A stretch of DNA of 46,667 bases from a virus. Shown here in pieces: positions 2,943 to 25,908 of the stretch. Where the stretch lies: IMG/VR virus record IMGVR_UViG_3300032893_000002, positions 1-46,667 of that record; one strand, written 5' to 3'. The position numbers and the translations under genes are program-made. Every line of letters begins with the position of its first letter. The stretch's first letter is position 1. Under the pieces are notes generated by a model. It was not told where the DNA came from and did no database searches. It saw only the letters and a list, made by a program, of their open reading frames with translations.

Positions 2943-2943
2943 G

Positions 2944-4565: not shown

Positions 4566-4625
4566 GTTGTTGTTTTGTTTCTGCCCACCAGCGGTCGAGA
4601 GTTTCTTTGGGTATTTCGTGATAAG

Positions 4626-4838: not shown

Positions 4839-5017
4839 TATTCAACCTCCCAAGGTTCGAACACACGTGGTTCATCTGGAATTGGTACGCTTGTGCCTCC
4901 TACAACATCGAAGGGCTTTCCGCATGCGTTACACTTCCAGCTCTGTCCATATCCAGGAGCTCCGTACTCTCCTTGATACTCAGTATTGGTGCTTTTGCAG
5001 TATGCGCATTCTTTCAT
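4838..5017 (-). CDS. small zinc-ribbon-like protein (59 aa, below 60-aa track cutoff)
   Basis: Hand translation MKECAYCKSTNTEYQGEYGAPGYGQSWKCNACGKPF...; CxxC..CxxC; GGAGGACTAACA SD; fills an otherwise unexplained gap. Confidence 0.4.
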   Translation of the reverse strand: MKECAYCKSTNTEYQGEYGAPGYGQSWKCNACGKPFDVVGGTSVPIPDEPRVFEPWEVE

Positions 5018-5019
5018 TG

Positions 5020-5187
5020 TTAGTCCTCCTTCCGTCTCTCGACGATTTGTTGTGATGGTTTCAGTCTAATTACTTTCCGATGACTGTAGCCGCTCTTCCT
5101 GTTACGGGAGCTGAAACGAATTCCAGTTCCTTTACATTCGCCGCAGCCTCGTCCCATACCAAAACACTTACCACACTGTCGTTTCAT
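5020..5187 (-). CDS. small Cys-rich protein (55 aa, below track cutoff)
   Basis: Hand translation MKRQCGKCFGMGRGCGECKGTGIRF...; TAAAGGAGGTCCT SD; stop overlaps SD of the next mini-gene. Confidence 0.35.
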   Translation of the reverse strand: MKRQCGKCFGMGRGCGECKGTGIRFSSRNRKSGYSHRKVIRLKPSQQIVERRKED

Positions 5188-5197
5188 AGGACCTCCT

Positions 5198-5530
5198 TTA
5201 CTTTCCGATTTGCGCCCAGGCGTCGGATGTGTAATGTTCGTTGAGATAGTCTACGATCTCGATCAGCCGTTCGTAGTAAGCTTTGTAGTTCGGAGAGTGT
5301 TTGTCTTCAGGTTCTTGTGTGTACTCGACAAATTGAGCTCTGGTCTGCTCCATTGTCTTTCCAATTGCCAAACGGAAGCCGATTGACTCGTACCACTCGT
5401 AATAATATCTTCCGCCAAGTGGCTCCGGTTCGACTCCAAAGTGTTTGCAGATCTCTTCGTCAATTTCTACGAAGCTGACTGGACCAGCTTTAAGATTGGA
5501 CTTCCGGGTAAGCTGAAAGTAATTGGGCAT
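5198..5530 (-). CDS. hypothetical protein (110 aa)
   Basis: Track ORF 5198..5578 trimmed to MPNYFQL... with AAAAGGAGAATAAGCAA SD. Confidence 0.5.
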   Translation of the reverse strand: MPNYFQLTRKSNLKAGPVSFVEIDEEICKHFGVEPEPLGGRYYYEWYESIGFRLAIGKTMEQTRAQFVEYTQEPEDKHSPNYKAYYERLIEIVDYLNEHYTSDAWAQIGK

Positions 5531-5730
5531 TTGCTTATTCTCCTTTTGGATGATACTATGGTATAGCCCCGCGCCCAACTATGCGTTAGACGCGGGACTA
5601 TTAAGGTTTAACTAGCAGGTAATTAGCTTTGGACGATCCCGGATCGTTCTGCGTTTGAGATGTCATCGACAATCATTGTGTACTTGTCCCAACGAATGTT
5701 ATCGATCTTAACTCCTCCCTGATTGATTAA

Positions 5731-6228
5731 CTACTGTTGCTGTTGCATCTTCGGTTGCGTCTCGTCGATTGCCTTTTGGAGCATATCAGCAAGACTTCCT
5801 TGTTCCTTTGCTTTCTGTTCTTTCTCTTTCATTTCGTCTTTCGTTGAACGAACCCGTTCCTTCTTGGGTGGAGCAGGAGGGACGTTCTTCTCGACGACGA
5901 CTTCTTCCTTTCCGACGCCAGCTTTCTTTGCGTCTCGACCGACTTGCTTTGCCAAGAGCTGATCTGCTTCCAAGGCCCATTCGAAAGCAGACTTCTTCGA
6001 TTCATCGTAGGTGCGAACCCAGATGACGATTCCGCCTTGCTTTCCAACAGCAATCTCGGGCCACTCCAGCGGTCCATGTCCTTGAAGAATCACCTTGCCG
6101 TCCCGTTCGCTCTGATCGAACGTCACATCCGGACGCAGTTCTTGCATCTTAGCCAGGAACTTCGCGACCATCGTGGTCTGCTTGGTTGCGATCACAGCGA
6201 CTTGGGTAGCAGTTTGATTGTTCGTCAT
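5731..6228 (-). CDS. hypothetical protein, paralog of 412..924 product
   Basis: Track ORF 5731..6294 trimmed to MTNNQTATQ... with TAAGGAGGATAAT SD; shared G(K/Q)xGIVI motif; Lys/Glu-rich C-terminus. Confidence 0.55.
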   Translation of the reverse strand: MTNNQTATQVAVIATKQTTMVAKFLAKMQELRPDVTFDQSERDGKVILQGHGPLEWPEIAVGKQGGIVIWVRTYDESKKSAFEWALEADQLLAKQVGRDAKKAGVGKEEVVVEKNVPPAPPKKERVRSTKDEMKEKEQKAKEQGSLADMLQKAIDETQPKMQQQQ

Positions 6229-6294
6229 ATTATCCTCCTTAAGGATAAAGGTTAGAGTTGCGTTGATGGTTGGGTTGCGAGAAACTTTTTGCAA

Positions 6295-6537
6295 TCAGAG
6301 AAGCAAGATTGGATGGCCGAGAATTTCTTCAGCCTGCGCAATCCTATCCTCTAGATCCTTCGCTCCGAAGACCCAGTCAAGAAGTTTTGCACTTGTCTCT
6401 GTTCTTTCGGTTACTGATGCTGTGAACAGATGTCGCTCAGTCTGTTTACGAAAGCTGTCCACGACAGAAGAAAAAGCAGCTTTTGCTTTTTCTTCAGTTT
6501 CAGCATCAAACTGGCATTCAATTACGAAGTGTTTCAT
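6295..6537 (-). CDS. hypothetical protein (80 aa)
   Basis: Trimmed to MKHFVIECQ... with AAAAGGAGAATCAAT SD. Confidence 0.45.
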   Translation of the reverse strand: MKHFVIECQFDAETEEKAKAAFSSVVDSFRKQTERHLFTASVTERTETSAKLLDWVFGAKDLEDRIAQAEEILGHPILLL

Positions 6538-6680
6538 ATTGATTCTCCTTTTTCTGGTTAGAGTTGCGTTGATGTTAGGTATTGGGTCGCTCGCCCTTTC
6601 GGGATTCACTCTTATACCTTTAGAAGCCGAGTTCTTTCAGCTTCTCGACAGCTACGGAACAGATAGCTGCGTTCAGCATG

Positions 6681-6833
6681 TTAGTCTCCTTGCTTAGTGA
6701 GTTGTTCGTACTGCTGTTCTAGTTGAGCAAACTTGGTTTCTAGCATGCGCTTCAAATACTTGTCCTTACAGCGTTTGATTTGTATTTGAAGTACTTCTGC
6801 ATGCGTGAGCATATCTTCGCGTGCTTTATCCAT
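6681..6833 (-). CDS. hypothetical protein (50 aa)
   Basis: Trimmed to MDKAREDML... with AGAAAGGAGCTGT SD; coiled-coil-like. Confidence 0.35.
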   Translation of the reverse strand: MDKAREDMLTHAEVLQIQIKRCKDKYLKRMLETKFAQLEQQYEQLTKQGD

Positions 6834-6879
6834 ACAGCTCCTTTCTCTGCGTGGTAAGTATGCGCAGCCCGCTGTTTTG

Positions 6880-7086
6880 TTAGAACCGCCAGACTGCTTT
6901 GACGTTATCCGGCAATGGTTCCGTCTTCCTGACACGGACCGATGCCGGCAAGTCACTTGTCATTCCTGCCAAAGGTTTGACATTTGTTACGCGTGACTGG
7001 CAAGTTACGATTGGTTTGTGTGTTGACTTTTTCAAGCTTGCAACTGAGCGAGCAAGCTCTCGGTAGATTTCCTCTTGTTTGAACAT
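6880..7086 (-). CDS. hypothetical protein (68 aa)
   Basis: ATG ORF, AAGGGACAATCTGT SD-like. Confidence 0.3.
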   Translation of the reverse strand: MFKQEEIYRELARSVASLKKSTHKPIVTCQSRVTNVKPLAGMTSDLPASVRVRKTEPLPDNVKAVWRF

Positions 7087-7199
7087 ACAGATTGTCCCTT
7101 CAGGTTGGTTAAGTTAGAGGAGATGTAGGTGGAGGACTAGCCACACCATAACTCTGACAATGGCTAATCCTAAGCAGAACAGTACGTATCTGATTGGTG

Positions 7200-7430
7200 T
7201 CATCTCACATCCATGATCAGCATTGCGCCGTCTCGGGTGTAAGCAGCCATCCACATCAGAGTGCCAATGTATCCAAGCCTGTGTCGTACAAGCCTGAATA
7301 TTTGGTACAGTACGTACCACTGTTCACGTGTGAACTGCGCGTGATTCATTTGTCTTTGTCCTTTCTTTTGTAACGTTGAAGTAAGGCCATGATGCCGCAG
7401 AATATCATCATGGCCATTGATACGTAGCAT
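7200..7430 (-). CDS. hypothetical protein (start ambiguous)
   Basis: Track ORF 7200..7544 overlaps 7451..7753 by about 90 nt, so an internal start (MLRING at 7430 or MNHAQ at 7349) is more likely; weak SD. Confidence 0.25.
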   Translation of the reverse strand: MLRINGHDDILRHHGLTSTLQKKGQRQMNHAQFTREQWYVLYQIFRLVRHRLGYIGTLMWMAAYTRDGAMLIMDVR

Positions 7431-7450
7431 CCGAACAGCATGGTTCTCAA

Positions 7451-7753
7451 CTACTTCTTCCCACGCAAGACCAGTTGCGCCGGAGCGTACTTGTTCATGT
7501 TCAAGATCTGTTGAGATCCGGGAAGGTAGTGATACATTGCACATCGAAGAGCCTTGTTATATGGTTCTCCATTCGTTACCTGATCCACAACGTTCTCTTC
7601 GAACTTCCGGATGCGTTCCAGAGCCTTCTCTTTGAACTCCACAGCGAGCATTCGGCATACTAGCCCGTAGGCTTTGTCTGCCGCCTCGATGGAAGACATG
7701 TTGGTGAGAAACTCCTTGTTCATGCGAAGGAGCACTTGTGTTGTTGCGTTCAT
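7451..7753 (-). CDS. hypothetical protein (100 aa)
   Basis: ATG ORF with AGAAGAGGATAATAACA SD. Confidence 0.5.
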   Translation of the reverse strand: MNATTQVLLRMNKEFLTNMSSIEAADKAYGLVCRMLAVEFKEKALERIRKFEENVVDQVTNGEPYNKALRCAMYHYLPGSQQILNMNKYAPAQLVLRGKK

Positions 7754-7977
7754 TGTTATTATCCTCTTCTGAGTCGTTTCCTGAGCGACTCTGTTAGTTG
7801 TTATTGGAAGTCAACGTACATCTTGGCAATTTCCACGATCTCGTGTTTGCCAATACGTTTGTTGACAGTCTTCTCACGGAACGCATTTCTTTGTTCCGTA
7901 AGACCCTCACTCTGAAGACGATCCGAGATATGTCGGATGACCTCTTCTGCTTACAGGTTGACTAGCTACACTGCCAA

Positions 7978-8145
7978 TCAGATCTCGCAAGCTATCTTAC
8001 TCAGCAGCATGTGGTTATAGCACTTGCTCATCCACACAGGTACTTCGTGAATGAACGGATCAGCTGCATTACGTAACTCATGCAGCAGCTTTGGATCGTC
8101 TGTCTCGATCACCAGAACGTTCCCTTCATCAAATGCAATTACCAT
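7978..8145 (-). CDS. hypothetical protein (55 aa)
   Basis: Trimmed to MVIAFDEG... with GGAGGTAGT SD. Confidence 0.45.
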   Translation of the reverse strand: MVIAFDEGNVLVIETDDPKLLHELRNAADPFIHEVPVWMSKCYNHMLLSKIACEI

Positions 8146-8146
8146 A

Positions 8147-8341
8147 CTACCTCCTTCCATTCCACCGCTCAGCGGTATTGTTGATTGAATCGTTAAGGAT
8201 TACAGCCGGAACGACATGAGCATCGTTAGGCCGTATGTCTACTACCTTTACAGTCTCAGCACCATCCTCATTCCAGTCTATACACACTAGACGGTATGAG
8301 CCATCAGGCGAGACTAGCACTGATACGTGATCTGCCATCAT
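8147..8341 (-). CDS. hypothetical protein (64 aa)
   Basis: ATG ORF, AAAGGGGGGATGT SD, 1-nt spacing to neighbours. Confidence 0.45.
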   Translation of the reverse strand: MMADHVSVLVSPDGSYRLVCIDWNEDGAETVKVVDIRPNDAHVVPAVILNDSINNTAERWNGRR

Positions 8342-8505
8342 ACATCCCCCTTTGCAATGTGCTTGTCAAACCACTGTTCGATCTTCCGTAGAGCAAGCTC
8401 CTTGTCTTGAAGACATAGCTTACCCTCCTGATAGCGGGGATTATCCGTTACCATGATATGCAGGCTTGGATAATCCCCACGGCTTTGATACAGAGCGATT
8501 GTCAT
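8338..8505 (-). CDS. hypothetical protein (55 aa)
   Basis: Trimmed to MTIALYQ... with CTAAGGAGGCTGTA SD. Confidence 0.45.
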   Translation of the reverse strand: MTIALYQSRGDYPSLHIMVTDNPRYQEGKLCLQDKELALRKIEQWFDKHIAKGDV

Positions 8506-12791: not shown

Positions 12792-13211
12792 TTGGATAAA
12801 GTAGTTGACAGAATTTATGTAGGCGATAATCTAGATCCTCATGAATTACGCGTTAGTAATTCGGAGCAGATTGGAGCAATATTGAATGTATGCGAAACAT
12901 TTGATCCTGCTCTAGACGTTGCATCTTTGCATATGCCATTTGCCGATTGCGCTCCAATTCCTACATACGAATTTCAAACTTGTATGTCGTGGCTTGAGCA
13001 ACAGTATCGACGATCAGACAGAAATATTTTTATTCATTGCCATTTAGGGATAAGTAGAAGTCCAACGATATGTGCTTCATTTATGTTTTTACAGAAGATT
13101 TCACCGACAATACAAGAAGCATTAGCTACGATTAAAGCAGCTAGACCAATCATAAATCCTCATCCTTTAACACTTCAGTCAGCTATTACGTATTTAGAGG
13201 AGATGAAATGA
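12792..13211 (+). CDS. CX5R-type (dual-specificity / protein-tyrosine family) phosphatase
   Basis: P-loop IHCHLGISRSPT = HC(X5)R(S/T) signature plus upstream Asp (PFADCAP); TTG start after GGGAGGAAAGATAA SD; size typical of minimal DUSP or RNA/polynucleotide phosphatases. Confidence 0.65.
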   Translation: MDKVVDRIYVGDNLDPHELRVSNSEQIGAILNVCETFDPALDVASLHMPFADCAPIPTYEFQTCMSWLEQQYRRSDRNIFIHCHLGISRSPTICASFMFLQKISPTIQEALATIKAARPIINPHPLTLQSAITYLEEMK

Positions 13212-13714
13212 AAACAGATGGACTCTGCGGAATTGAATGGTTTAAAGCAAATAAAGAACTTCAAAACGCGTCAAGAGAAAAGTGGGATGTTAGATTTTTG
13301 GAATTGGCTAAGTTTATTGCCAGTTGGTCTAAAGATCCTTCTACTAAGACTGGAGCCGTAATTGTTCGGCCTAATAAATCGGTTGCTTCTGTTGGGTTTA
13401 ACGGCTTCCCTACTAAGTTAATTGATTCCGAAAAAGATTATTCTAATCGAGATGTAAAGTATAGTAAGATCATTCATTGTGAAATGAATGCGCTTCTATT
13501 TGCGCGTGAACAAGTAACAGGATATACACTCTATACCTATCCTCTTGCTTCTTGCGAACGTTGTGCAGTTCATATGATTCAAGCCGGAATTACAAGATGT
13601 GTATTTCCAAAGATTCCACACGATCAACAAGAACGCTGGCAAGATTCAGTAAATAGGACAAAGACGTATTTAACAGAAGCAGAAGTTGACTGGCGTGAAG
13701 TAGATTTTGAATAA
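13208..13714 (+). CDS. dCMP (deoxycytidylate) deaminase
   Basis: Zinc-binding motifs HCEMNAL (H-x-E) and SCERC (C-x-x-C) at canonical spacing; length and layout of ComEB/dCMP deaminase family. Confidence 0.8.
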   Translation: MKTDGLCGIEWFKANKELQNASREKWDVRFLELAKFIASWSKDPSTKTGAVIVRPNKSVASVGFNGFPTKLIDSEKDYSNRDVKYSKIIHCEMNALLFAREQVTGYTLYTYPLASCERCAVHMIQAGITRCVFPKIPHDQQERWQDSVNRTKTYLTEAEVDWREVDFE

Positions 13715-13718
13715 GGAC

Positions 13719-13740
13719 GGTAATTAGTATAATTATATAT
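13719..13740 (+). promoter_or_regulatory. conserved motif CGGTAATTAGTATAATTATATAT (putative promoter)
   Basis: Second copy of the 10820-10840 motif; TATAAT at 13728-13733, ATG of a small ORF 5 nt downstream. Confidence 0.5.
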
Positions 13741-13900
13741 GGCAAAGATTTTTAAGCTTGTACTACCAAACGAAAAAGGTATTTTCGTAATTCCAGCGGA
13801 ATACAGTGGCTGCAAGTTTATAATTAGAGATCATAGATGTTTTGTTATTCTAGAAGAAGGTAAACAAGAAATTCTTGAAAATGTACAGGAGCTTGCATGA
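13739..13900 (+). CDS. small ORF (53 aa, below track cutoff)
   Basis: Hand translation MAKIFKLVLPNEKGIFVIPAEYSGCKFIIRDHRCFVILEEGKQEILENVQELA; stop overlaps ATG of the next gene (ATGA); no SD, so leaderless or near-leaderless if real. Confidence 0.3.
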   Translation: MAKIFKLVLPNEKGIFVIPAEYSGCKFIIRDHRCFVILEEGKQEILENVQELA

Positions 13901-14292
13901 AATTCTTTCAAAAGGCTTCCGATGGAGGAAAAGATTCGGGCGTTACAGCTTATTTCTTAGTAGAAATTAAATCTTTATTCTCGATAACGCTTTTACATTT
14001 CGAACCTAGTCACAGAGAAGCTTTTCATAGTCACGCATTTAATGCTGTGACTCTATGGTTAAAGGGCGTTGCAGTAGAAGAAGTTAGAGACGAAAAAGGA
14101 ATAACCGTTAATTTGTGGGCAGCGGGTAAGTTTAAGTATACGCCACGAGAGTTAATGCATAGGATTAAAGTATTACGAAAGGGAGCTTGGGCTTTATCTA
14201 TTCGCGGCTCTTGGCAAGAACAGTGGCAAGAGTATCATCCAAGTATACGAAAAGTAATTACTTTAACACATGGCAGAAAACAAATTAATTAA
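13897..14292 (+). CDS. hypothetical protein (131 aa), possible cupin-like His cluster
   Basis: HFEPSHREAFHSH histidine cluster; otherwise no motif. Confidence 0.4.
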   Translation: MKFFQKASDGGKDSGVTAYFLVEIKSLFSITLLHFEPSHREAFHSHAFNAVTLWLKGVAVEEVRDEKGITVNLWAAGKFKYTPRELMHRIKVLRKGAWALSIRGSWQEQWQEYHPSIRKVITLTHGRKQIN

Positions 14293-14312
14293 GGAGAACG
14301 CAGGAGATTTTT

Positions 14313-14495
14313 GTGGAAGATAATCAATTGAAGTGTAGCCTTACGACATATGATCAATTAAAAGACTATGCTTATTACTTTCTATCTCAAAAACTAATTA
14401 CAGAACCTCAATTTCATAACATCATGGAATTTTTAGGGAAGAAAGAATTACAAGAAAAGAACGCATATAAGGCAGTTTGGGGAGCAGGAGAATAA
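14313..14495 (+). CDS. hypothetical protein (60 aa)
   Basis: Non-ATG (GTG) start in track, GGAGATTTTT SD. Confidence 0.3.
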   Translation: MEDNQLKCSLTTYDQLKDYAYYFLSQKLITEPQFHNIMEFLGKKELQEKNAYKAVWGAGE

Positions 14496-14497
14496 GT

Positions 14498-14668
14498 ATG
14501 AGTAAAATAGTCGAATATACTGTTTACATAGATGACGATTCGCTATCTGTTTTTGCCGATCGTTTTGACTACTCTATTTCAGGAAATAGTATTACGTTTT
14601 ATATTGGAGATGATACAGTTGCGCTCTTTAATATGACTTATACAAGAGGCATCGTGAGAACAGGTTAG
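14498..14668 (+). CDS. hypothetical protein (56 aa)
   Basis: Trimmed to MSKIVEY... with GGAGCAGGAGAATAAGT SD. Confidence 0.4.
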   Translation: MSKIVEYTVYIDDDSLSVFADRFDYSISGNSITFYIGDDTVALFNMTYTRGIVRTG

Positions 14669-14728
14669 GAATAATTTTTAGTAACCCTTGAAAAATCACA
14701 CAACTTTTAATATAATACATATCCCGCA

Positions 14729-15490
14729 ATGCACAAACCTCTAGGCATTAAAAATTACGGAAGCATCGGCCATCTACCTCAGAGCCGTCTGGGACCAGGA
14801 GATCATAAGGTTCCAGACGGACAGGCCGCTATATGTATTGAACAAACAAGAGATGAGTATGATAGAGTAATTGTTACAGAAAAATTAGACGGTTCGAATT
14901 GTGGTGTAGCTTTACTTGATGGACAGATTTTAGCTTTAGGTAGAGCAGGATATTTAGCACAATCCTCTCCTTACGAACAGCATCAACTATTTGCCTACTG
15001 GGTTAGACAAAATGAAGCAAGTTTTCGTAAAATTCTACGAGAAGGCGAACGATGCGTCGGCGAATGGCTGGCGCAAGCACATGGAACTAAATACGACTTG
15101 CCTTGTCCGCCGTTCTGCGTTTTTGATATTATGAAAGGACGTGAGCGCGCTCCGTGGAGCGAAGTATTAGAACGTTGCTATCCTTTAGTTAATACTGTTC
15201 CAGTATTACATGATGGAGGAGCCGTAGCGATAGAAACAATTATGCATGATTTAAATGCTGTTCCAAGGGCGTATGGACAATGCGATGAAAAAAGATTTTA
15301 TGGTTGGTTTGGTGCGATGGAAGAAGTAGAAGGAGCTGTTTGGCGAGTTGAAAGAAAAGGAAAATTTGACTTTATGGCGAAGTATGTCAATCCAGATAAG
15401 CTTGATGGGAAGTACTTAGAAAAAGTAAGCGGACAGCCGCCTATATGGAATTGGAGACCAAATGCTGAAGATAGTGTTATCAATTTATAA
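14729..15490 (+). CDS. ATP-dependent polynucleotide ligase-like nucleotidyltransferase (RNA ligase-like, 253 aa)
   Basis: Covalent nucleotidyltransferase motifs in order: I VTEKLDGSN (KxDG), III CVGEWL, IV EGAVWRVERKG, V KYV; size fits small RNA-ligase family (PF09414-like) rather than DNA ligase. Confidence 0.55.
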   Translation: MHKPLGIKNYGSIGHLPQSRLGPGDHKVPDGQAAICIEQTRDEYDRVIVTEKLDGSNCGVALLDGQILALGRAGYLAQSSPYEQHQLFAYWVRQNEASFRKILREGERCVGEWLAQAHGTKYDLPCPPFCVFDIMKGRERAPWSEVLERCYPLVNTVPVLHDGGAVAIETIMHDLNAVPRAYGQCDEKRFYGWFGAMEEVEGAVWRVERKGKFDFMAKYVNPDKLDGKYLEKVSGQPPIWNWRPNAEDSVINL

Positions 15491-15653
15491 GGACGATAAT
15501 GCTCAACCGCTGTTTCAAATTCGTGGAGATGCTTTTGAATCATTATGTTGGGTGGCAGAAGATGATAAAAAAGGGATTAAAGATGATGGAAGGGTATTGA
15601 AAAATCTCGGTTATTGGCCAAATCTACCGCGCAAAGAGGAAAATAAGGATTAG
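15462..15653 (+). CDS. hypothetical protein (63 aa)
   Basis: ATG ORF with GGAGA SD, overlaps previous gene end by 29 nt. Confidence 0.35.
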   Translation: MLKIVLSIYKDDNAQPLFQIRGDAFESLCWVAEDDKKGIKDDGRVLKNLGYWPNLPRKEENKD

Positions 15654-15656
15654 TAT

Positions 15657-16055
15657 ATGGGATCGAGAGCGCCAAAACCTACAAAGAGGGAAGTTGACGC
15701 TGTACTTGCGCAATTAGAAAAATTAGATGTTCCTCCAGTAGATTATTCACAACGTTGCCTTACAGATGGTTCTCCTATAACTTCAGATCATAAAGAAATT
15801 GATCCTATTACAAAACAACAGAAAGACTATATAGTTCTGACAGCAGAGGAACGTGCTAAAGGATTCGTTCGTCCAGTTCGAGATACTTACACACATCTGA
15901 AGTGCAATTCTGATACAACAATGGGCAGAGCTATTGCAGAAACCTACGCGCGTGAACCAAAATTTTATAGCGGAACATTCTGCTGTACTTGCCAACAACA
16001 TTTCCCGCTAGACGAATTTGTCTGGAAGGGTACAGAAGAGATACTAGGAACATAG
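15657..16055 (+). CDS. hypothetical protein (132 aa)
   Basis: ATG ORF; Cys cluster FCCTCQQH near C-terminus. Confidence 0.45.
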   Translation: MGSRAPKPTKREVDAVLAQLEKLDVPPVDYSQRCLTDGSPITSDHKEIDPITKQQKDYIVLTAEERAKGFVRPVRDTYTHLKCNSDTTMGRAIAETYAREPKFYSGTFCCTCQQHFPLDEFVWKGTEEILGT

Positions 16056-16156
16056 AGTATGAGACTGAGACGTAAGTAGGCGGCAGGTTCCGCACTCAAC
16101 CAAAGCCGGTAAATTCTCAGATATAATCCGGCAGAATTAAGCAAAAAGTAAGAAAA

Positions 16157-16516
16157 ATGGAGAAAATAGCATTAATGGACTTTAATTTCTATCATGAAGA
16201 AGCATTAAAATCGGCTGTTTATCCGAATATTGGTAATAATCCGCATTATCCGCTGATGGGTTTGGCAGGAGAAGTTGGTGAAGTAGCAGAGAAGATTAAG
16301 AAACTATGGCGCGATAAGAACCAATCTAAAGGTGCAGAATTCTCTGCAGAAGATAAAGAAGCTATAGCACTAGAACTTGGCGATGTACTTTGGTATGTAT
16401 CAGCTCTGGCTAGAGAAATAGGTTTGCCATTAGAAAAAGTAGCATCTCTAAATTTGGCAAAGTTGGGTTCTCGCAAACAGAGAAATAAAGTACATGGTTC
16501 GGGGGATAATAGATAG
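16157..16516 (+). CDS. mazG: MazG-type nucleoside triphosphate pyrophosphohydrolase
   Basis: Canonical MazG motifs LAGEVGEVAEKIKK (E-x-x-E-x-x-E) and ELGDVLWYVSALA. Confidence 0.8.
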   Translation: MEKIALMDFNFYHEEALKSAVYPNIGNNPHYPLMGLAGEVGEVAEKIKKLWRDKNQSKGAEFSAEDKEAIALELGDVLWYVSALAREIGLPLEKVASLNLAKLGSRKQRNKVHGSGDNR

Positions 16517-16813
16517 ATGATGACTACAGAGAGCATGCTCAAGCAATTTGAAGAGTTAACAAAGAAGATGGTCGAAGTTGTTACAGCGAAGAATAAAGAT
16601 TACTCACGCGGGGAATCTCCATTTAAAAATCTTGTACGACACGGAACTTATGGAATAGTTGTTCGAATGGACGACAAGATTTGCAGATTAGATTCATTAA
16701 CAAGTCCGAAATATGGTGGGGAACCAGCAATAAAATCGGAATCAATTGAAGATACGGCGTTAGATTTGGCTATATATAGCTTACTTCTGATACTGTTACA
16801 TAGAGATTCATGA
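16517..16813 (+). CDS. hypothetical protein, possible second all-alpha NTP-pyrophosphatase-like protein
   Basis: Weak MazG-like helix IEDTALDLAIYSLLLIL; low-confidence functional guess. Confidence 0.3.
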   Translation: MMTTESMLKQFEELTKKMVEVVTAKNKDYSRGESPFKNLVRHGTYGIVVRMDDKICRLDSLTSPKYGGEPAIKSESIEDTALDLAIYSLLLILLHRDS

Positions 16814-16983
16814 AAGACATTGCGTATTATCCAGCTCCAAATCAGTATTTTTACGATAGAAGAGCTAAAATTAAAGAGGAAAATCGGTGTTCTAAATGCG
16901 ATGGCTTCGGATATATTTTAGTTGAGGAGCATAGCTGGGAATTATGTCTAGCATGCTATGCGACAGGACAACAGATTGACTGA
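16810..16983 (+). CDS. small zinc-ribbon protein (57 aa, below track cutoff)
   Basis: Hand translation MKDIAYYPAPNQYFYDRRAKIKEENRCSKCDGFGYILVEEHSWELCLACYATGQQID; ATGA overlap with previous stop. Confidence 0.35.
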   Translation: MKDIAYYPAPNQYFYDRRAKIKEENRCSKCDGFGYILVEEHSWELCLACYATGQQID

Positions 16984-17167
16984 CTACGAACTTGGACGGA
17001 TTGATGCTACGCGAGACATTCTTAAGGAGTGGCTTAAGTTCCGGTATAGTATAAATGGACGTCAGCCTTTTATGTTCGACCGTCGAGATATAATCGATCC
17101 AGGAGCAAAAGGTTTGATAGATGATAACTTTTTTCCAAGAGGAAATCCTAATGCTCAAGACGACTAG
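16958..17167 (+). CDS. hypothetical protein (69 aa)
   Basis: ATG ORF; overlaps the 57-aa mini-ORF so one of the two may be spurious. Confidence 0.3.
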   Translation: MRQDNRLTDYELGRIDATRDILKEWLKFRYSINGRQPFMFDRRDIIDPGAKGLIDDNFFPRGNPNAQDD

Positions 17168-17522
17168 ATGTACTCACTGCAGCGCAGAATTTACAGATCA
17201 AGAATTAGAGAATGTAACAAGTTGTCCGAAATGCGGAACAACTGGAATTCCATGTTTAATTGCAGACGATGTGTTGTTAAAAATAAATTGGCATGAACTT
17301 CGTATTCTCGGAATTTGGGCAGATAATTATGCTAAAGCAGCACATATTGAAGACAGTTCTGCAAAAGTAATTGCAGCTATTTTAGCACGTTGTGAGAAGC
17401 AATTTCCTGATAAAACGCCCCTAACTTTGGGAGGAGAAATAAGAAAAATACAAGAAGAACATCCAGAAATCAGTTTAATGCGTGGAGGAAAGATAGAAGT
17501 TTCTTCGAAACGAGTAAATTAG
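17151..17522 (+). CDS. hypothetical protein with N-terminal zinc ribbon (123 aa)
   Basis: Trimmed to MLKTTRCTHCSAEF...CPKCG with AGAGGAAATCCTA SD. Confidence 0.45.
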   Translation: MLKTTRCTHCSAEFTDQELENVTSCPKCGTTGIPCLIADDVLLKINWHELRILGIWADNYAKAAHIEDSSAKVIAAILARCEKQFPDKTPLTLGGEIRKIQEEHPEISLMRGGKIEVSSKRVN

Positions 17523-18098
17523 ATGAGAAAAGGTGGTTGGATTACTACATATTCCGGCAAGAAGTTTTGGCCATTAGATCCAAAAGCTGAAGATATTTCT
17601 ATTTATGATATTGCGCATGCTTTATCTTTAATATGTCGATTCGGAGGACACTGCAGAAATTTCTATAGCGTAGCGCAGCATAGTATTCTCGGAGCGCAGC
17701 ATATTTTATTAAAAGAAAAAAGCAACGCGTTAGCAGCTTATGAATTTCTTTTTCATGATGCATCTGAAGCTTATCTATGTGATCTTTCGCGGCCAATTAA
17801 ACACGACTCTCTATTAGGTAGTTTATATAAAAAGGCTGAGAAAAAGTTGGAGCAAGCTATTGCAGAGAGATTTAATGTTAGCTATCCGCTTTCACAAATA
17901 TGTAAAGATACAGATATGAGTATGCTCTTAACAGAAGCTCGTGATTTAGGATTAGATACAACGGGCTGGATTGTTGCACCGCAAGATCGTTGTTTTGAAG
18001 ATAAAATTGTACCTTGGTCTCCTGTCGAGTCTGAACAAGGTTTTTTACGCATGTATGATTCTCTTTCTGCGACTTTGTTTATTCAAGCAGTAGTCTAA
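17523..18098 (+). CDS. HD-domain phosphohydrolase
   Basis: HD motif FLFHDASEAYLCD preceded by conserved His (IAHALSLICRFGGH) in the order expected for HD superfamily (YfbR-like nucleotidases). Confidence 0.55.
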   Translation: MRKGGWITTYSGKKFWPLDPKAEDISIYDIAHALSLICRFGGHCRNFYSVAQHSILGAQHILLKEKSNALAAYEFLFHDASEAYLCDLSRPIKHDSLLGSLYKKAEKKLEQAIAERFNVSYPLSQICKDTDMSMLLTEARDLGLDTTGWIVAPQDRCFEDKIVPWSPVESEQGFLRMYDSLSATLFIQAVV

Positions 18099-18116
18099 TT
18101 CTACAGGAGATATTAT

Positions 18117-18647
18117 ATGGCCGAAAGAATGCAATTGCCCACTACGCGTCAAAGTATTGTTCATCATTTTGCTGTTGGCGAATATGAAGGTTATTTAACA
18201 GTTGGTTTGTATGAAACGGGACTTCCAGGCGAAGTATTTGTGAAGATGGTAAATAAAGATACAACAGTCTCAGGCTTTATGGATAGTTTTGGATTAGCCG
18301 TGTCACTTGCACTTCAGCATGGTGTTCCATTAAAATTACTTTGCGACAAGTTTAGCTATATTCAATTTGATCCAAAGGGAGAAACAGCGAATAAGAAACT
18401 TCCGACGGCGAAATCTCTTATAGATTATTTATTCAGATGGATGGATTTATACTTTATTAAAGGCGATGTCTCTGCGTTGGAAAATTATATTAAACCGGAA
18501 GTAAAGAAATCAATCAAGCACGTCGTTACAAAGTCTTCTGGAATAGGATCGGATGCGCCTCCCTGTAGACAGTGTGGAGAATTGATGCAGCCAAATGGAA
18601 GTTGTCATGTTTGTAAATACTGCGGAGAAACTAGTGGTTGTTCATAA
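18117..18647 (+). CDS. hypothetical protein with C-terminal zinc ribbon (176 aa)
   Basis: C-terminal CRQCG...CHVCKYCG; no other motif. Confidence 0.45.
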   Translation: MAERMQLPTTRQSIVHHFAVGEYEGYLTVGLYETGLPGEVFVKMVNKDTTVSGFMDSFGLAVSLALQHGVPLKLLCDKFSYIQFDPKGETANKKLPTAKSLIDYLFRWMDLYFIKGDVSALENYIKPEVKKSIKHVVTKSSGIGSDAPPCRQCGELMQPNGSCHVCKYCGETSGCS

Positions 18648-18655
18648 GGAGATAT

Positions 18656-19573
18656 ATGGCAGAAGTAGTAAAGAAAGAAGATGGGAAAGTAGCAGAAGTA
18701 AAATCTATTATAAGCGATAAGCCAGCTACTGCTACTATACAAAAGTCCGAAACTAAGTTAAGTGAAATTAAAGATGGTACTGCAGTAGCAAAGACATTTA
18801 AAGCTGAACGAGATCCAAAATCGACATACATCTATGCCGGTGTTCAGGAAGGTATGCGTGCTGCGACTGAAACTCCCTCCAATGCTAAACCAGTTGTCGA
18901 TGTTGTACCACAAGATACAGAAAAAATAGCTAAGAAAGTACAAAAATCAATAGTTCCAAAAGTCGAACAAAAGAAGAAGCCAGAAGTTCCAACATTGACG
19001 ATTGGTAAAGATATTTTCTCTGTCGATTTATCTGCATTGGCAGAGTATGTAGCATTCGATGTTGATGCGCATCGTTACTTTACGCAAGAGAATACATATA
19101 AAATTCTTGCACACCTTTCAAAACAACTGCCGAAAGGATCTAAAGTTGCAGATCTCGGAACTGCGTGTGGTTCCTCTGCGCTTGCCTTTGCATCAAATCC
19201 GGATGTTCAAGTATCTACTATTGATTCCAGGAAGTTGCTGCCACAAAACTTAAAGAATGCCTCTTCTCTTCCAAATGTATCTTTTATTCAAGGAGATATT
19301 GCAAACTATATTAGTATATATGCAGATGCTAAGATTATATATTTGGATGTTCATCCGCATGACGGCATTCAAGAAAGTAAAATATATAATGAATTAATTG
19401 CTAGCGAATTCAAAGGTATTTTAATTCTTGATGATATACATGCATTTGAAGGACTTAATTCGTTTTGGAATACAATTTCAAGGAAGAAGATTGACGCAAC
19501 AGAATATGGACATCATTCAGGAACAGGAATTGTCGTATTTTCTCCGACTGATTTAGATGTTGTTATTTCTTAG
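18656..19573 (+). CDS. class I SAM-dependent methyltransferase with N-terminal extension carrying a capsid-like peptide
   Basis: Rossmann motif I VADLGTACGSSALAFA, acidic IIYLDVH and ILILDDIH strands; ATAAGGAGATAT SD; N-terminal aa 49-76 KAERDPKSTYIYAGVQEGMRAATETPSN nearly identical to aa 125-152 of the putative capsid protein. Confidence 0.6.
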   Translation: MAEVVKKEDGKVAEVKSIISDKPATATIQKSETKLSEIKDGTAVAKTFKAERDPKSTYIYAGVQEGMRAATETPSNAKPVVDVVPQDTEKIAKKVQKSIVPKVEQKKKPEVPTLTIGKDIFSVDLSALAEYVAFDVDAHRYFTQENTYKILAHLSKQLPKGSKVADLGTACGSSALAFASNPDVQVSTIDSRKLLPQNLKNASSLPNVSFIQGDIANYISIYADAKIIYLDVHPHDGIQESKIYNELIASEFKGILILDDIHAFEGLNSFWNTISRKKIDATEYGHHSGTGIVVFSPTDLDVVIS

Positions 19574-19600: not shown

Positions 19601-19630
19601 TTGACATTATCAGGTTTGGCAATATATAAT
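19601..19630 (+). promoter_or_regulatory. sigma70-like promoter
   Basis: TTGACA (19601-19606) followed 17-18 nt later by TATATAAT (19623-19630), upstream of ORF 19671. Confidence 0.5.
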
Positions 19631-21108: not shown

Positions 21109-21843
21109 ATGCGCGTTAAACTACAAGAACAGCCTATACAAGCGCGGCCGGTAAAGTCGCTCCCGGCTCCAGCCCATCCATCTGAGACAAGTAAAAGTAT
21201 AGAAAAAACTGAGAAAATAGATGCGTTATCTAAGAAATTAGGGTTAACGCCGAAGCAAAAACTCGCCGCAGACTATTACCTTCAAAACTTCAATAAGTAT
21301 AAAGCTGCGATTAAAGCAGGTTATTCAGAGTCTGTAGCAAACTGCGCAGAAGATAATATTTTTAGTGTTCCTGCTGTTCGCGACTACATCAATCAAAAAA
21401 TAAATCGACGCTTTAGAAAAGAAGAATTTTCAGCAGAACAAGTATTGATGCAGATTGAAAATGCGGCATCAGCAAATTTGCTTGACTATGGTAATGTTAC
21501 AGAAGATGGCGGATTTGAGTTGGATCTTACGAAAGTAGATAGATATTTAGCAGCAAACATTCAAGAGTACTACATCGATGCTGCAGGCAAACCTAAGATT
21601 AAGTTAATTGACAAGAAATGGGCACTTGAGAAGAAAGCTCAGCTATTGAAGATGTTTGAAACATCTCAAGGTCCAGGCGCCGAGAGCGAGCCTTTGACAA
21701 TTCAATCGCTCGATGCAATAGTACAGAAAGTTGTTACAAATAATACAATAAACCAAAATATTACAGTTAATGTTGGAGCAAGGGAAGCTCAGCAGTTTTC
21801 TCAAATTTTAGAAGGCAGCGATGATAGTTTATCTAATTCATAA
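21109..21843 (+). CDS. terS: terminase small subunit
   Basis: Trimmed from track ORF 21049..21843 to MRVKLQ...; contains the LTPKQKLAADYY motif typical of phage small terminase subunits; lies immediately upstream of terL with only a homing endonuclease between. Confidence 0.55.
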   Translation: MRVKLQEQPIQARPVKSLPAPAHPSETSKSIEKTEKIDALSKKLGLTPKQKLAADYYLQNFNKYKAAIKAGYSESVANCAEDNIFSVPAVRDYINQKINRRFRKEEFSAEQVLMQIENAASANLLDYGNVTEDGGFELDLTKVDRYLAANIQEYYIDAAGKPKIKLIDKKWALEKKAQLLKMFETSQGPGAESEPLTIQSLDAIVQKVVTNNTINQNITVNVGAREAQQFSQILEGSDDSLSNS

Positions 21844-22486
21844 TATACAAAACGAAAAAGTCTATGTTGGTATTACGAAGCATCAGTTTAAGCATAGATG
21901 GGATGAGCATTGTGATGCAGCATATAAGTATAATATGCAGTGGCATCTTTCAAATGCAATTCGTTTGTATGGAAAAGATTCTTTCTATCATGAAATCTTA
22001 GCTGTTGTTGCTACAGAAGAAGAAGCCAAGATATTAGAAAGGCTTTGGATTATAACTTTGCGTTCTTTTGATTCAGAATTTGGCTATAATATGACTTATG
22101 GAGGAGACGGCGTAAATCCGAGTTTTTTACGCGGAACTATCAGGAAAGAAATTTATGGAATTGAATCAGAAAAGCAAAGAGGCATAGCCATAAGTCTTGC
22201 AAAAAAAGGCAAACCAAGTTGGAAAAAAGGAACAACAAATATTGAACTTTATGGAGAAATAAAGGCTGCAAAAATTGCAGAGCAGGTATCAAAAACAAAG
22301 ACAGGTAAATCGAACATAAAACGAATAGGAAAGCCGGGTGCTCTTCTTGGAACTATTAGGAAATTAGCTTACGGAGAGCAATCCGAATTTGCAAGAGCAA
22401 GAGCTATAAGTGCAGCTAAAAAAGGAAAGCCTTCTCCCCGAAAAGGAAGAATCTTTCCGAAACAGATTGTAGCTGCATCATTATAA
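21821..22486 (+). CDS. GIY-YIG homing endonuclease with NUMOD-like C-terminal repeats
   Basis: N-terminal IYLIHNIQNEKVYVGIT...HRWDEH GIY-YIG core; repeated KKGKPSWKKGT / KKGKPSPRKG DNA-binding modules; paralog of 33779..34417; inserted between terS and terL. Confidence 0.85.
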   Translation: MIVYLIHNIQNEKVYVGITKHQFKHRWDEHCDAAYKYNMQWHLSNAIRLYGKDSFYHEILAVVATEEEAKILERLWIITLRSFDSEFGYNMTYGGDGVNPSFLRGTIRKEIYGIESEKQRGIAISLAKKGKPSWKKGTTNIELYGEIKAAKIAEQVSKTKTGKSNIKRIGKPGALLGTIRKLAYGEQSEFARARAISAAKKGKPSPRKGRIFPKQIVAASL

Positions 22487-22723: not shown

Positions 22724-22975
22724 ATGGGAATTTGCGTCATCACACATAATCAGGCAAAGAAGTGGGAAGATACAGACGTTAGGCCGAATTGTTCACATCA
22801 TTTTCATATATCTGCAAAACAGGCATATATTGCCGTAGGCGAAGATAATGCGAATTGGTTCGATGGCCCATCTTCAAGAGCAATAGTTTTTCATGATTGC
22901 GTATTAAGATATGAGTGGCAGGCTAGAAAAAGTATAGGGTTTAACGTTTTGCAGATGGTACCAATTAGAAAATGA
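22724..22975 (+). CDS. hypothetical protein (83 aa)
   Basis: ATG ORF whose ATG lies inside a TAGTATAAT motif; stop overlaps terL start. Confidence 0.4.
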   Translation: MGICVITHNQAKKWEDTDVRPNCSHHFHISAKQAYIAVGEDNANWFDGPSSRAIVFHDCVLRYEWQARKSIGFNVLQMVPIRK

Positions 22976-25908
22976 GTATATCCCCTAGAGATCGAAGAAT
23001 TGCGGATACAGTACTAGATCCAGTTAAGTTTGCTAAACTATACTTCGATATTGATTTGTGGGGAAAGCAGAAAGAGATTTTAAACTCAATTGCTGTTAAT
23101 CAACGTACGGCTGTTAAGAGTTGCCACTCAAGTGGAAAATGTGTTGCTGCAGATGAGGTTCTAACGTTAGCAGACGGTTCGAGAATAAAAGCTAAAGATC
23201 TTATTGGCAGAAGTTTTGCATTGCCTACATTAGATGAAGAAGGACATGTTGTTGCTGCAGCAGCAAAAGCAGAATTTAATGCAGTTGAAGAAGTATTTAT
23301 AATAACTACGGAATCCGGAAAGCAGATTGTAAGAAATGCGGAACACCCGCTTTGGCGCGGCGAACGGCTGCCGTGGAACTTAGGTGAGAAAGATACAAAA
23401 TTAACGTTCGGACCCGGCAAAAATTTTGGCGCAAAGAAATTCAATTTGCCAAAAAACATTAGTTGGAGTGATGTAAGAGGAACAATATTTCCCAGAGGAT
23501 GGACTTCAGTTGCGGAGTTAAAAGAAGGCGATTACGTAGCTATGGCTGCTTCATTGCCAGTTTTTGGCTCAGAAGAAATATGTGAAGCAGAATTAAAAAT
23601 TCTTGCCTATTTAATAGGTGATGGGTGCGTTTCTCAGGACGGGGCTCCTGGGTTTACTCAACAAGAAAATAAACAATTAGAAGAATTTCGTTTTTGTGTA
23701 GAAGCAATAGGCTGTAGGCTACATAGACATAACGATCTGGACTACTCAGTTTACGGACAAGGAACGAAACACGTAAAAAGAAAAAATCCTGCATCTGAAT
23801 TAGTAAGAAAGCATGGATTAGCTGGTAAAAAATCAAAAGATAAATTTGTTCCAGAAGTAGTGTTCTCTTTAACAAAAGAACAGACAGCAATTTTTTTATC
23901 GCGCTTATTTGCAACAGATGGTTGGGCAGAGATAAGGGGAATTTATTATTCTAGTACTTCATTTCGTTTAGTACAGGATATTCGAGAACTTCTTCTTCGT
24001 TTTGGAATTATTGCTGATATTAGCAAGAAAAGTACATTTTGGCTATATAAAGGAGTAGAAAAAACAGGCATAGCCTACGATCTTAGCATAAACAGAGCTG
24101 CCAATATAATAGCGTTTTGCGAAGAAATCGGAATTTACGGAAAAGAGCAACAGACTGTAAGAGCATTGGCAAATGCTCGAGAATCTATTGCACGCTGTTC
24201 TGCAGAACATTTTCACAAAACTGGAACTTCGGCACGAACAAAGACGAATTTTGGAAGAGGCCAGCATAGCAGTTTATGGAGAATGAAAACTGCTCCAAAA
24301 GGCACATACTGGGAAAAGATTAAATCTATTGAATATAGAGGTATAGAAGAAACAGTAGCAATAGAAGTTCCAGACTACGGCACGTTTTTAACACAATTTT
24401 GGGAGCATAATACATTTACATCAGCACTAGCAACACTTTGGTTTCTTGCGTCGCATCCAAAAGAAGCAATTGTAATTACAACTGCTCCTACTTATAATCA
24501 GGTTCAGAAGCAGCTATGGGGCGAAATTAAGTCGTTACTAATTAAGAGTAAGCTGAAGTGGCCAGAGCCATCGTTAACAGAATTAAGATTACATCCGAAG
24601 AGATATGCAACTGGATTAACAACATCTGTTACTAAAGGCGATGAGGGCGTTAAGTTTCAAGGTTTTCACGCCGATGACATTCTAGTAATATTAGACGAAG
24701 CTCCAGGCGTAGAGCCAAAGATTTGGGAAGCTATTGAAGGCGCACGAGCTGGTGGCAACGTAAAGATTCTTGCTATCGGAAACCCAACAATTGCTAGCGG
24801 ACCGTTTCACGATGCGTTTGTAAATAATCGTTCCGGCTGGAATTGCATATCAATTAGCGCATTTGACACACCGAACCTTCAAGGTATAGAATTAGAACAG
24901 CTTATTGATCCAAATCATCCAAAATATCTTACGGATGCGCAATTAAAAGAGAATCAGCAGAGTTTTTTAACAACAAGATTTTGGGTTAAAGAAAAGTATT
25001 TTGAATGGGGTCCAACACATCCTGCATGGGAGACTCGTGTTCTTGGCTGCTTTCCATCGCAGAGCGATGATGCTTTATTCGGGCTAATGTACCTAGAGAA
25101 AGCACGAGATAGTGATCTTAAAGCATCGCCAGCGGACAAAGTTGTAGCAGGATTAGATGTAGCTGGACCAGGAGAAGATGAAACAGCGTTAGTAATTAGA
25201 AAAGGTCCGGAGATTCTATATAGTAATGCTTGGGCAACTGCTGATCCGAGAGGCAAAGTTGTTGCGGCATTGAATCAATACAGAAGTGAGTTATCTGCTG
25301 TTAATGTGGATAAGTTAGGAATTGGATGGGGAATGTACACTCACTTAAAAGAGTTGGGATTCCCAGTTGTAGCTATTAATATTACAGAGACAAGTACTGA
25401 TCCGGAACAGTTTTTTAACTCACGCGCTGAATTTTGTTGGGGATTTAGACTTAGACTTCAACAAGGACAAGTAAGCGGCCTTCTAGATGAAAAGACAATT
25501 GGGCAATTAGCTGGAATGCGATTTAAGCAGAATGCTAGAGGACAAACAGAAATTGAATCTAAAGATGCTGCATTTAAACGCGGTGTACATAGTCCAGATA
25601 GAGCTGAAGCTGTTTTGTTAGCTTTCGCAGAGCGAAATAAATCATATAGCGCACTTGAGTATTACAAAGGAGTTATGAGTAGTATGGAGAAAGCACAAGC
25701 AGCTTTAATGATGAAGCCAGCAATGCCAGACAAACCAAAGGAATGTCCTACATGTCGAGCCGTTTGCGTTGTACAGCTTGCGAGTGGGTTTCGTTGTAAT
25801 CAGTGTGGATGTCAATTCGGCGGAAAGGGAAGTTCAATCGGACAACCTAATCAGCGTACAGAGTACTTACAAAAATTGGATGCTGGTAGACGTAACTTAT
25901 GGAAGTAA
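22972..25908 (+). CDS. terL: terminase large subunit, interrupted by an intein (exteins 22972..23139 and 24412..25908)
   Basis: Spliced sequence gives Walker A KSCHSSGK|TFTSALATLWFLA; Walker B ILVILDEAPG; C-terminal nuclease-like region and terminal CxxC cluster; intein flanked by Cys1 and His-Asn / +1 Thr. Confidence 0.85.
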   Translation: MSISPRDRRIADTVLDPVKFAKLYFDIDLWGKQKEILNSIAVNQRTAVKSCHSSGKCVAADEVLTLADGSRIKAKDLIGRSFALPTLDEEGHVVAAAAKAEFNAVEEVFIITTESGKQIVRNAEHPLWRGERLPWNLGEKDTKLTFGPGKNFGAKKFNLPKNISWSDVRGTIFPRGWTSVAELKEGDYVAMAASLPVFGSEEICEAELKILAYLIGDGCVSQDGAPGFTQQENKQLEEFRFCVEAIGCRLHRHNDLDYSVYGQGTKHVKRKNPASELVRKHGLAGKKSKDKFVPEVVFSLTKEQTAIFLSRLFATDGWAEIRGIYYSSTSFRLVQDIRELLLRFGIIADISKKSTFWLYKGVEKTGIAYDLSINRAANIIAFCEEIGIYGKEQQTVRALANARESIARCSAEHFHKTGTSARTKTNFGRGQHSSLWRMKTAPKGTYWEKIKSIEYRGIEETVAIEVPDYGTFLTQFWEHNTFTSALATLWFLASHPKEAIVITTAPTYNQVQKQLWGEIKSLLIKSKLKWPEPSLTELRLHPKRYATGLTTSVTKGDEGVKFQGFHADDILVILDEAPGVEPKIWEAIEGARAGGNVKILAIGNPTIASGPFHDAFVNNRSGWNCISISAFDTPNLQGIELEQLIDPNHPKYLTDAQLKENQQSFLTTRFWVKEKYFEWGPTHPAWETRVLGCFPSQSDDALFGLMYLEKARDSDLKASPADKVVAGLDVAGPGEDETALVIRKGPEILYSNAWATADPRGKVVAALNQYRSELSAVNVDKLGIGWGMYTHLKELGFPVVAINITETSTDPEQFFNSRAEFCWGFRLRLQQGQVSGLLDEKTIGQLAGMRFKQNARGQTEIESKDAAFKRGVHSPDRAEAVLLAFAERNKSYSALEYYKGVMSSMEKAQAALMMKPAMPDKPKECPTCRAVCVVQLASGFRCNQCGCQFGGKGSSIGQPNQRTEYLQKLDAGRRNLWK
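23140..24411 (+). mobile_element. intein (424 aa) with LAGLIDADG homing-endonuclease domain inside terL
   Basis: Begins CVAADEVLTLADGS (block A, Cys1), block B T..H (NAEHPLW), LAGLIDADG motifs LAYLIGDGCVS and LSRLFATDGWAE, ends ...FWEHN followed by Thr; in-frame with terL. Confidence 0.85.

Follow-up and report, generated by a model that had tools for sequence, protein, structure and literature searches.

The approximately 7-kb gene block at positions 12792-19573 of the IMG/VR virus record IMGVR_UViG_3300032893_000002 (46,667 nucleotides, the whole of which is termed the window here) is probably a mosaic segment within the early/middle region of a phage and not a single system, comprising a deoxynucleoside triphosphate (dNTP)-pool module, a lone ligase, and an exchangeable phosphatase. 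The ligase encoded from position 14729 groups with the RNA ligases, and not with DNA ligases or capping enzymes, by both fold and hidden Markov model (HMM). A previous sequence-only reading had located genes at 12792, 13208, 14729, 16157, 16517, 17523, and 18656, all of which were identified at these positions on the + strand, and had proposed that the phosphatase and ligase form a split Pnkp/Rnl-type tRNA-healing pair or that the nucleotide-metabolism genes remodel the dNTP pool, possibly for a non-canonical base. Genes are referred to below by these start positions. The ligase gene and the site preceding it are:

14729-15490, + strand: stand-alone RNA-ligase-family lysine nucleotidyltransferase of 253 amino acids (aa), core domain only (Pfam RNA_ligase PF09414, E 9e-23, whole HMM).
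14688-14716, + strand: promoter-like site TTGAAA-17-TATAAT (11/12 in a consensus scan), 12 nt 5' of the ligase ATG and within a 60-nt gap.

The 14729 product contains the motif I KxDG lysine together with motifs III, IIIa, IV, and V, and is thereby a member of the covalent lysine nucleotidyltransferases of PF09414. The motifs were assigned as I (EK52LDGS), Ia (R72), III (GE112W), IIIa (F132-D133), IV (E201-G-AVWRVER), and V (K218), and an alignment of 34 family members showed K52, R72, E112, F132/D133, E201-G202, and K218 to be invariant. Motifs I, III, and IV were as the sequence-only reading had listed them; in motif V, the first lysine (K218) is conserved in the alignment and the second is not. 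Two further segments were strongly conserved in the family, namely an N-terminal KPLGxKNYGSIGHLPxSR segment and a C-terminal WNWRP tail. Among PHROGs, the protein matched phrog_38169 (function unknown) at E 2e-53, ahead of the PHROG annotated as RNA ligase. An AlphaFold (AF2) model with a predicted local distance difference test score of 91 was compared with solved structures; the approximately 45 residues before motif I are largely extended and include a single short helix, and the core ends around residue 220, followed by a tail of approximately 30 residues without a globular domain. The OB domain of DNA ligases is absent. The grouping with DNA ligases or capping enzymes that had been considered for 14729 was thus not borne out, and HMM classification assigned it to RNA_ligase PF09414. 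Residues ~178-192 (window 15260-15300) include a 13-residue insertion that is present only in 14729 and its two closest relatives and was modelled at low confidence. No Shine-Dalgarno sequence was found upstream of the ligase start. As the total of promoter-like sites was not above that in shuffled controls, the site before the ligase is suggestive only, and such sites were dropped as proof of separate transcription units.

The Shuman group distinguishes RNA ligase families according to which domains accompany the core (PMC6379707). Such additional domains confer substrate specificity on the known ATP-dependent families. As 14729 is the catalytic core alone, it falls outside Rnl1-Rnl6 by this criterion. 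It lacks the appended C-terminal domain of the Rnl2 family and, at 253 aa, the N-terminal, dimerisation, and C-terminal domains of the Rnl3 family (~380 aa). The Rnl5 family is defined by an N-terminal OB-like module (PMC1807946), and this module of ~125 aa is also missing from 14729. Similarity to solved ligases was marginal (family profile E of at least 0.0035), including a match to the Naegleria/Deinococcus Rnl5 ligase at E 0.06, and the matches to Pab1020 and MthRnl extended over motif I only. Sequence identity to the nucleotidyltransferase domain of T4 Rnl2 was 16%; unlike T4 Rnl2, 14729 has no C-terminal domain and a conserved WNWRP tail, and its second motif V lysine is not conserved.

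The ligase family is large and widely distributed, with ~4959 matches in a database clustered at 90%, of which the best 120 are 229-267 aa long, and 297 representatives at 50% identity (E <= 1e-30). At least 106 viral contigs carry a member, as do 277 species-representative genomes from the Planctomycetota, Chloroflexota, Acidobacteriota, Bacteroidota, cyanobacteria, and others. Among cultured phages, members were found in Flavobacterium psychrophilum phages only (42% identity, annotated as hypothetical).

The genomic context of the family was analyzed at ~75 viral and 65 genomic loci using crude open reading frame (ORF) calls of our own within ±6 kb of the ligase, and clustering of the predicted neighbors identified no recurrent partner family at these loci. 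A tblastn search with all 24 proteins of the block detected no relative of the phosphatase, deaminase, or MazG and one relative of the HD protein at the viral loci, and zero relatives at the genomic loci. Pfam annotation of viral ligase neighbors (127 at ±1 and 150 at ±2/3) identified no polynucleotide kinase and only two Metallophos (calcineurin-like) and one HD_4 domain. The complete genome of Flavobacterium phage 2A (46.6 kb, 62 genes) encodes the ligase, and neither a kinase nor a phosphatase is annotated in it. A link between the ligase and tRNA genes was rejected, with tRNA genes near the ligase in six of 60 viral loci, and PADLOC showed no enrichment of defense genes among the genomic ligase neighbors. 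One Planctomycetaceae contig (L006, 6967-10051) has the ligase between a PIN-domain gene and a defense-module-like pair formed by an AAA_21 ATPase and DUF4276.

Occasional neighbors at the 65 genomic loci were RlaP (1), PIN (3), beta-CASP/RMMBL (2), Macro (3), and microbial PARG (5). In addition, two independent fusion proteins from separate clusters (among P0244, P0281, P0257, and P0172) have an AbiEii-type Pol-beta nucleotidyltransferase preceding the ligase. The AbiEii toxin family modifies tRNA. An RlaP-ligase association has been described for RNA repair, and the AbiEii-ligase fusion parallels that arrangement. Among the same four proteins, a LAGLIDADG intein interrupts one and another has an HNH domain. 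Classification by fold and HMM points to RNA as the probable substrate, as do the fusions with AbiEii and the occasional neighbors (RlaP, PIN, beta-CASP/RMMBL, Macro, and PARG).

The ligase fold might alternatively serve another role, either as a DNA nick sealer in replication or recombination or as an adenylyltransferase in NAD+/ADP-ribose chemistry, such as end capping or uncapping or the production of NAD+ from nicotinamide mononucleotide via lysyl-AMP. Macro or PARG genes flank the ligase in eight of the 65 genomic loci, sometimes together with a phosphoribosyl pyrophosphate (PRPP)-synthase-like gene, and the core-only architecture and deviant motif V leave the second substrate open. However, the Macro/PARG linkage was confined to two lineages, the fold, HMM, and missing OB domain separate 14729 from DNA ligases, and the AbiEii fusions with the RlaP, PIN, and beta-CASP neighbors point to RNA, such that this role is considered quite improbable. 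The Macro and PARG neighbors nevertheless make a connection with ADP-ribose chemistry conceivable. The loci concerned have the ligase directly after a microbial-type PARG or Macro gene (L139, L142, L149, L162, and L163, Calothrix-type; L136, L137, and L152, Bacteroidota), and a PRPP-synthase-like gene follows the ligase in L136 and L152.

As the ligase gene nearly always stands by itself, its product is most simply modelled as acting on breaks that require no healing. By the classic pathway, 14729 would be self-adenylylated at K52 by ATP, the AMP would then pass to an RNA 5'-phosphate, and the 3'-OH would attack. The enzyme would in this manner reseal nicks in RNA, most plausibly tRNA, whose ends are 5'-phosphate and 3'-OH from the outset, without end healing. 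No kinase or phosphatase partner would be required because metal-dependent nucleases (Toprim and PIN) leave such ends, as is the case for the Toprim nuclease P2-OLD (PMC12445682). In the same study, repair of a single nick by T4 Rnl1 or Rnl2 alone was described as occurring “seamlessly” and “without additional end healing” (PMC12445682).

Several considerations weigh against this model. The RNA substrate and end chemistry of the ligase family are inferred throughout, and of the two lysines normally found in motif V a single one is kept. In the case of T4 Rnl2, the isolated core self-adenylylates and seals pre-adenylylated nicks, and is defective in AMP transfer and overall nick joining. A core-only enzyme such as 14729 may consequently need a partner, may depend on its conserved N- and C-terminal segments for substrate binding, or may have another function. 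The dual-specificity phosphatase, deaminase, and ligase genes are packed tightly on one strand, which is compatible with co-expression, and the neighbor analyses rest on crude ORF calls over a span of ±6 kb only. Finally, a kinase, the N-terminal part of NrdJ, or a base-modifying enzyme could lie outside the 46.7-kb window, which covers part of a contig reported as 180 kb and leaves roughly 130 kb of it unread.

A broader proposal, which we regard as possible but doubtful, is that the 14729 family constitutes a distinct core-only clade and a present-day form of the “stand-alone adenylyltransferase” postulated as an ancestor by Banerjee et al. The phage members would then be a one-enzyme counter-defense that reseals tRNA cut by OLD/PARIS-type Toprim or PIN nucleases, and the cellular versions would pair with Macro/PARG hydrolases or AbiEii/RlaP-type nucleotidyltransferases in place of a kinase-phosphatase. 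The likeness to the T4 Pnkp plus Rnl1 and bacterial Pnkp/Hen1 systems would lie in an ATP-dependent ligase in a phage that plausibly counters an RNA-cleaving defense.

The phosphatase lies 1.5 kb from the ligase on the same strand:

12792-13211, + strand: dual-specificity (CX5R) phosphatase (Pfam DSPc, E 3e-12, exceeding the gathering cut-off).

The CX5R phosphatase named by the sequence-only reading was upheld by the DSPc match (47 bits versus a cut-off of 33.5) and by an HCX5RS loop. Its P-loop reads H82-C83-HLGIS-R89-S90 and D52 aligns with the general-acid Asp of DUSP15/22, and 12792 accordingly belongs to the Cys-based dual-specificity phosphatases defined by an HCX5R(S/T) P-loop plus a general-acid Asp. 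Human DUSP15 (1yz4) was its best PDB match (full-length, E 2e-12). It shares the HCX5RS loop, the general-acid Asp, and a size of ~140-160 aa with the atypical small phosphatases DUSP15 and DUSP22 and, unlike these human enzymes, is phage-encoded. For a member of the RNA-specific Cys phosphatases (BVP/PIR1 and PTP-SAK), a better match to the RNA-associated subfamily and a missing general-acid Asp would be expected.

The metagenomic contigs found to carry the block were L001, an ENA contig identical across the region, and L003, a sibling phage that is ~90% identical. Alignment of L003 to the window by blastn gave 91% identity up to 12794 and 89% over 13194-18143, with a break at 12795-13193 that coincides with the phosphatase gene and an unrelated 85-aa ORF in its position. 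The deaminase, ligase, MazG, Nmad1-like, and HD genes are all retained in L003 in unchanged order. As the break matches the gene and an unrelated ORF replaces it, the phosphatase is interpreted as an exchangeable cassette. The two distant relatives of 12792 that could be placed are in phage tail modules without a ligase, and a remote relative in cultured viruses was found in Halogranum tailed virus 1 only.

These data bear on the proposed split Pnkp/Rnl pair, in which 12792 would process the ends produced by anticodon nucleases, removing their 3'- or 2',3'-cyclic phosphates, before 14729 would seal the tRNA. Besides the proximity of the two genes, the proposal draws on the occurrence of DSP-PTPase domains in the “Swiss Army Knife” protein, on a weak match of 12792 to the Pfam PTP-SAK model (E 0.0045), and on a review of jumbo phages that lists the “Swiss-army-knife” family among the phosphatases working with RNA ligases. 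However, the PTP-SAK match reached 17.5 bits, under its cut-off of 27 and far from the DSPc score, and 12792 is a generic DSPc/DUSP15-like enzyme, not one of the HAD or metallophosphoesterase type found in known Pnkp enzymes. Known healing phosphatases come from other superfamilies, that of T4 being a member of the HAD superfamily. The CthPnkp enzyme is a metallophosphoesterase (PMC2190708). The linkage is not conserved either, since L003 has the same ligase with the phosphatase replaced, a homologue of the phosphatase was near the ligase in none of the ~140 viral and genomic loci analyzed, and homologues elsewhere are in tail modules without a ligase. Pfam, PHROG, and NCBIfam scans of the window ORFs identified no 5'-OH polynucleotide kinase, such that 5'-OH breaks would not be sealable, and the promoter-like site lies between the two genes. 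From these comparisons, together with phage 2A and the superfamilies of the known healing phosphatases, the pair is judged very improbable, and the corresponding claim of the sequence-only reading was not sustained. Instead, 12792 would be a protein-type accessory enzyme, acting most likely on phosphoproteins or another non-RNA substrate.

The remaining genes of the block are:

13208-13714, + strand: dCMP deaminase (Pfam PF00383 dCMP_cyt_deam_1, E 3e-14; phrog_174, E 5e-38; HCE and CERC zinc motifs).
13897-14292, + strand: cupin-like protein (phrog_4786, “cysteine dioxygenase,” E 2e-22).
15462-16055, + strand: two ORFs, one of 63 aa that overlaps the 3' end of the ligase gene and one of 132 aa, with no match in Pfam, PHROG, or PDB.
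16157-16516, + strand: MazG-type NTP pyrophosphohydrolase (Pfam MazG, E 7e-12; phrog_229, E 7e-31; GEVGEVAE and ELGD).
16517-16813, + strand: Nmad1/AF_0060-like three-helix protein (fold-level similarity, below Pfam detection).
17523-18098, + strand: YfdR/YfbR-like HD 5'-deoxynucleotidase (phrog_318, E 3e-59; PDB Atu1052, E 3e-12).
18117-18647, + strand: free-standing C-terminal fragment of the class II (B12) ribonucleotide reductase NrdJ (NCBIfam PRK06556, E 2e-50, residues 741-864 of 960; Pfam TSCPD, E 4e-9).
18656-19573, + strand: possible class I S-adenosylmethionine (SAM) methyltransferase whose N-terminal half is rich in Lys (Methyltransf_31, E 1e-3, sub-threshold; PDB 3mgg, E 6e-4; DLGTACG motif I).

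The identities given to 13208, 16157, and 17523 in the sequence-only reading agreed with the family searches. The deaminase contains the H(A/C)E and PCxxC-type motifs of the dCMP deaminases and the MazG protein contains the ExxE...ExxD helices of the all-alpha NTP pyrophosphohydrolases, each with a match to the family HMM. The HD protein is predicted to be a 5'-deoxynucleotidase of the YfbR/YfdR type by its H...HD...D pattern (metal-site residues H32, H53, H78-D79, and D87) and family HMM, with the Pfam YfbR-like model below its cut-off. Relatives occur in 269 phage records, many of them lambdoid yfdR genes, and a single-sequence search of viral contigs yielded none. For the suggested second NTP pyrophosphohydrolase (16517), the similarity held at the level of fold, and the protein probably has an all-alpha, MazG-class-like NTP pyrophosphohydrolase fold; an hhalign comparison of its family with the window MazG was not significant. 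It resembles proteins named “Nucleotide modification associated domain 1” (Nmad1, DUF1599). Similarly, the suggested SAM methyltransferase at 18656 retains its DLGTACG motif I, with a Pfam match that did not reach significance, and its ATG agrees with the gene call in L001.

The sequence-only reading had omitted the NrdJ fragment and the cupin-like gene. The NrdJ piece consists of a TSCPD domain and a Cys-rich CxxC...CxxC tail, and the N-terminal catalytic part of NrdJ was not visible within the window. A split class II ribonucleotide reductase, NrdJa/NrdJb, occurs in Pseudomonas, compared to which 18117 covers the NrdJ C-terminal region only. The cupin-like protein had no match in Pfam or, by sequence, in the PDB. 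The 63-aa and 132-aa ORFs were absent at all other ligase loci; the latter (15657-16055) is 56% identical to hypothetical proteins of the Synechococcus phages Ssp-JY42 and Yong-M4-211, while haloarchaeal tailed viruses encode proteins that match its C-terminal half, and these sequence matches may be a hint about the host.

The deaminase, MazG, Nmad1-like, YfdR-like, and NrdJ genes form a set conserved in the sibling L003 and look like a dNTP-pool module of the kind common to phage early regions. The block copies are divergent from the YfdR/YfbR, MazG, and Nmad1 proteins of other phages. Judging from family membership, the deaminase would make dUMP, MazG and the Nmad1/AF_0060-like protein would hydrolyze selected (d)NTPs, the YfdR-like enzyme would dephosphorylate deoxynucleoside monophosphates, and the split-off NrdJ piece would serve ribonucleotide reduction. 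The proposed remodelling of the dNTP pool is therefore plausible only in its generic form, by the deaminase, MazG, Nmad1-like, HD, and NrdJ genes, and none of the window's genes points specifically to a non-canonical base. In the alternative reading, the deaminase, MazG, Nmad1-like, and HD proteins, perhaps with the cupin and methyltransferase-like ORFs, would remodel the pool so as to place such a base in the phage DNA. The resemblance of 16517 to nucleotide modification associated proteins, the pairing of a deaminase with NTP pyrophosphohydrolases (a route by which phages keep a canonical base out, for which the jumbo-phage review mentions MazG), the presence of unassigned cupin and methyltransferase-like ORFs in the block, and the glycosyltransferases elsewhere in the window all speak for this possibility. 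Against it, Pfam and PHROG scans of the sizeable window ORFs identified no thymidylate-synthase-like hydroxymethylase or recognizable base-modifying enzyme, and the absence of both a polynucleotide kinase and a thymidylate-synthase-like gene from the window agreed with the sequence-only reading. The HD gene is furthermore of the common YfdR type. Lambdoid phages, which also have it, possess ordinary DNA. The glycosyltransferases neighbor sugar-nucleotide enzymes in the structural region, where glycosylation of proteins or virions fits better. A non-canonical base is consequently thought unlikely.

All ORFs of the block are on the + strand and tightly packed, often with overlapping stop and start codons, and credible genes occur on the + strand only from ~9000 rightward in the window. 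The block is followed 3' by genes for the small terminase (21049), a GIY-YIG endonuclease, a 978-aa LAGLIDADG ORF, the portal (30251), a prohead protease-like protein, and sugar-modifying enzymes. At the nucleotide level, cultured phages matched the block over ~88 nt of the deaminase only, with no close relative, and no tRNA genes were found in the window. An exact match to the window end was not found in IMG/VR, and look-ups with proteins from the two ends added 10 kb of structural genes to the right and nothing to the left. A perfect sigma-70 consensus (TTGACA-18-TATAAT) is present at 19601-19630 in the gap 3' of the methyltransferase-like ORF. The 978-aa ORF (22972-25908), directly after the small terminase and GIY-YIG genes, is probably an intein-interrupted gene given its LAGLIDADG/intein signals; its PHROG matches are families of unknown function. 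Two GIY-YIG homing-endonuclease-like ORFs (21821-22486 and 33779-34417) are inserted into the packaging/head region. The sugar-enzyme cluster within the structural region (27865-29517 and 38011-44234) includes GT2 glycosyltransferases, an NAD-dependent epimerase/dehydratase (38923), a C-methyltransferase (39882), and a PLOD-type glycosyltransferase (43488), which suggests glycosylation of virion proteins or another target.

The left arm (window 1 to ~9000) differs from the remainder in its G+C content of 44-48% compared to 37-40% elsewhere, and the strand also switches. Minus-strand ORFs of positions 1-8500 gave zero Pfam or PHROG family matches, and two of them (412-1020 and 5731-6294) are paralogues (48% identity over 52 aa, E 8e-12). 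Judged by coordinates, an independent ENA contig should span the left-arm junction.

The main interest of the block is the ligase clade, the remainder being ordinary phage nucleotide metabolism and an exchangeable phosphatase. Phage RNA repair is understood mainly via the T4 paradigm of a kinase-phosphatase plus a ligase, from which a large core-only family without a regular healing partner departs. If active alone, the 14729 family would show how a minimal ligase recognizes RNA and would be a candidate response to the increasing number of tRNA-cutting defense nucleases that leave ligatable ends.

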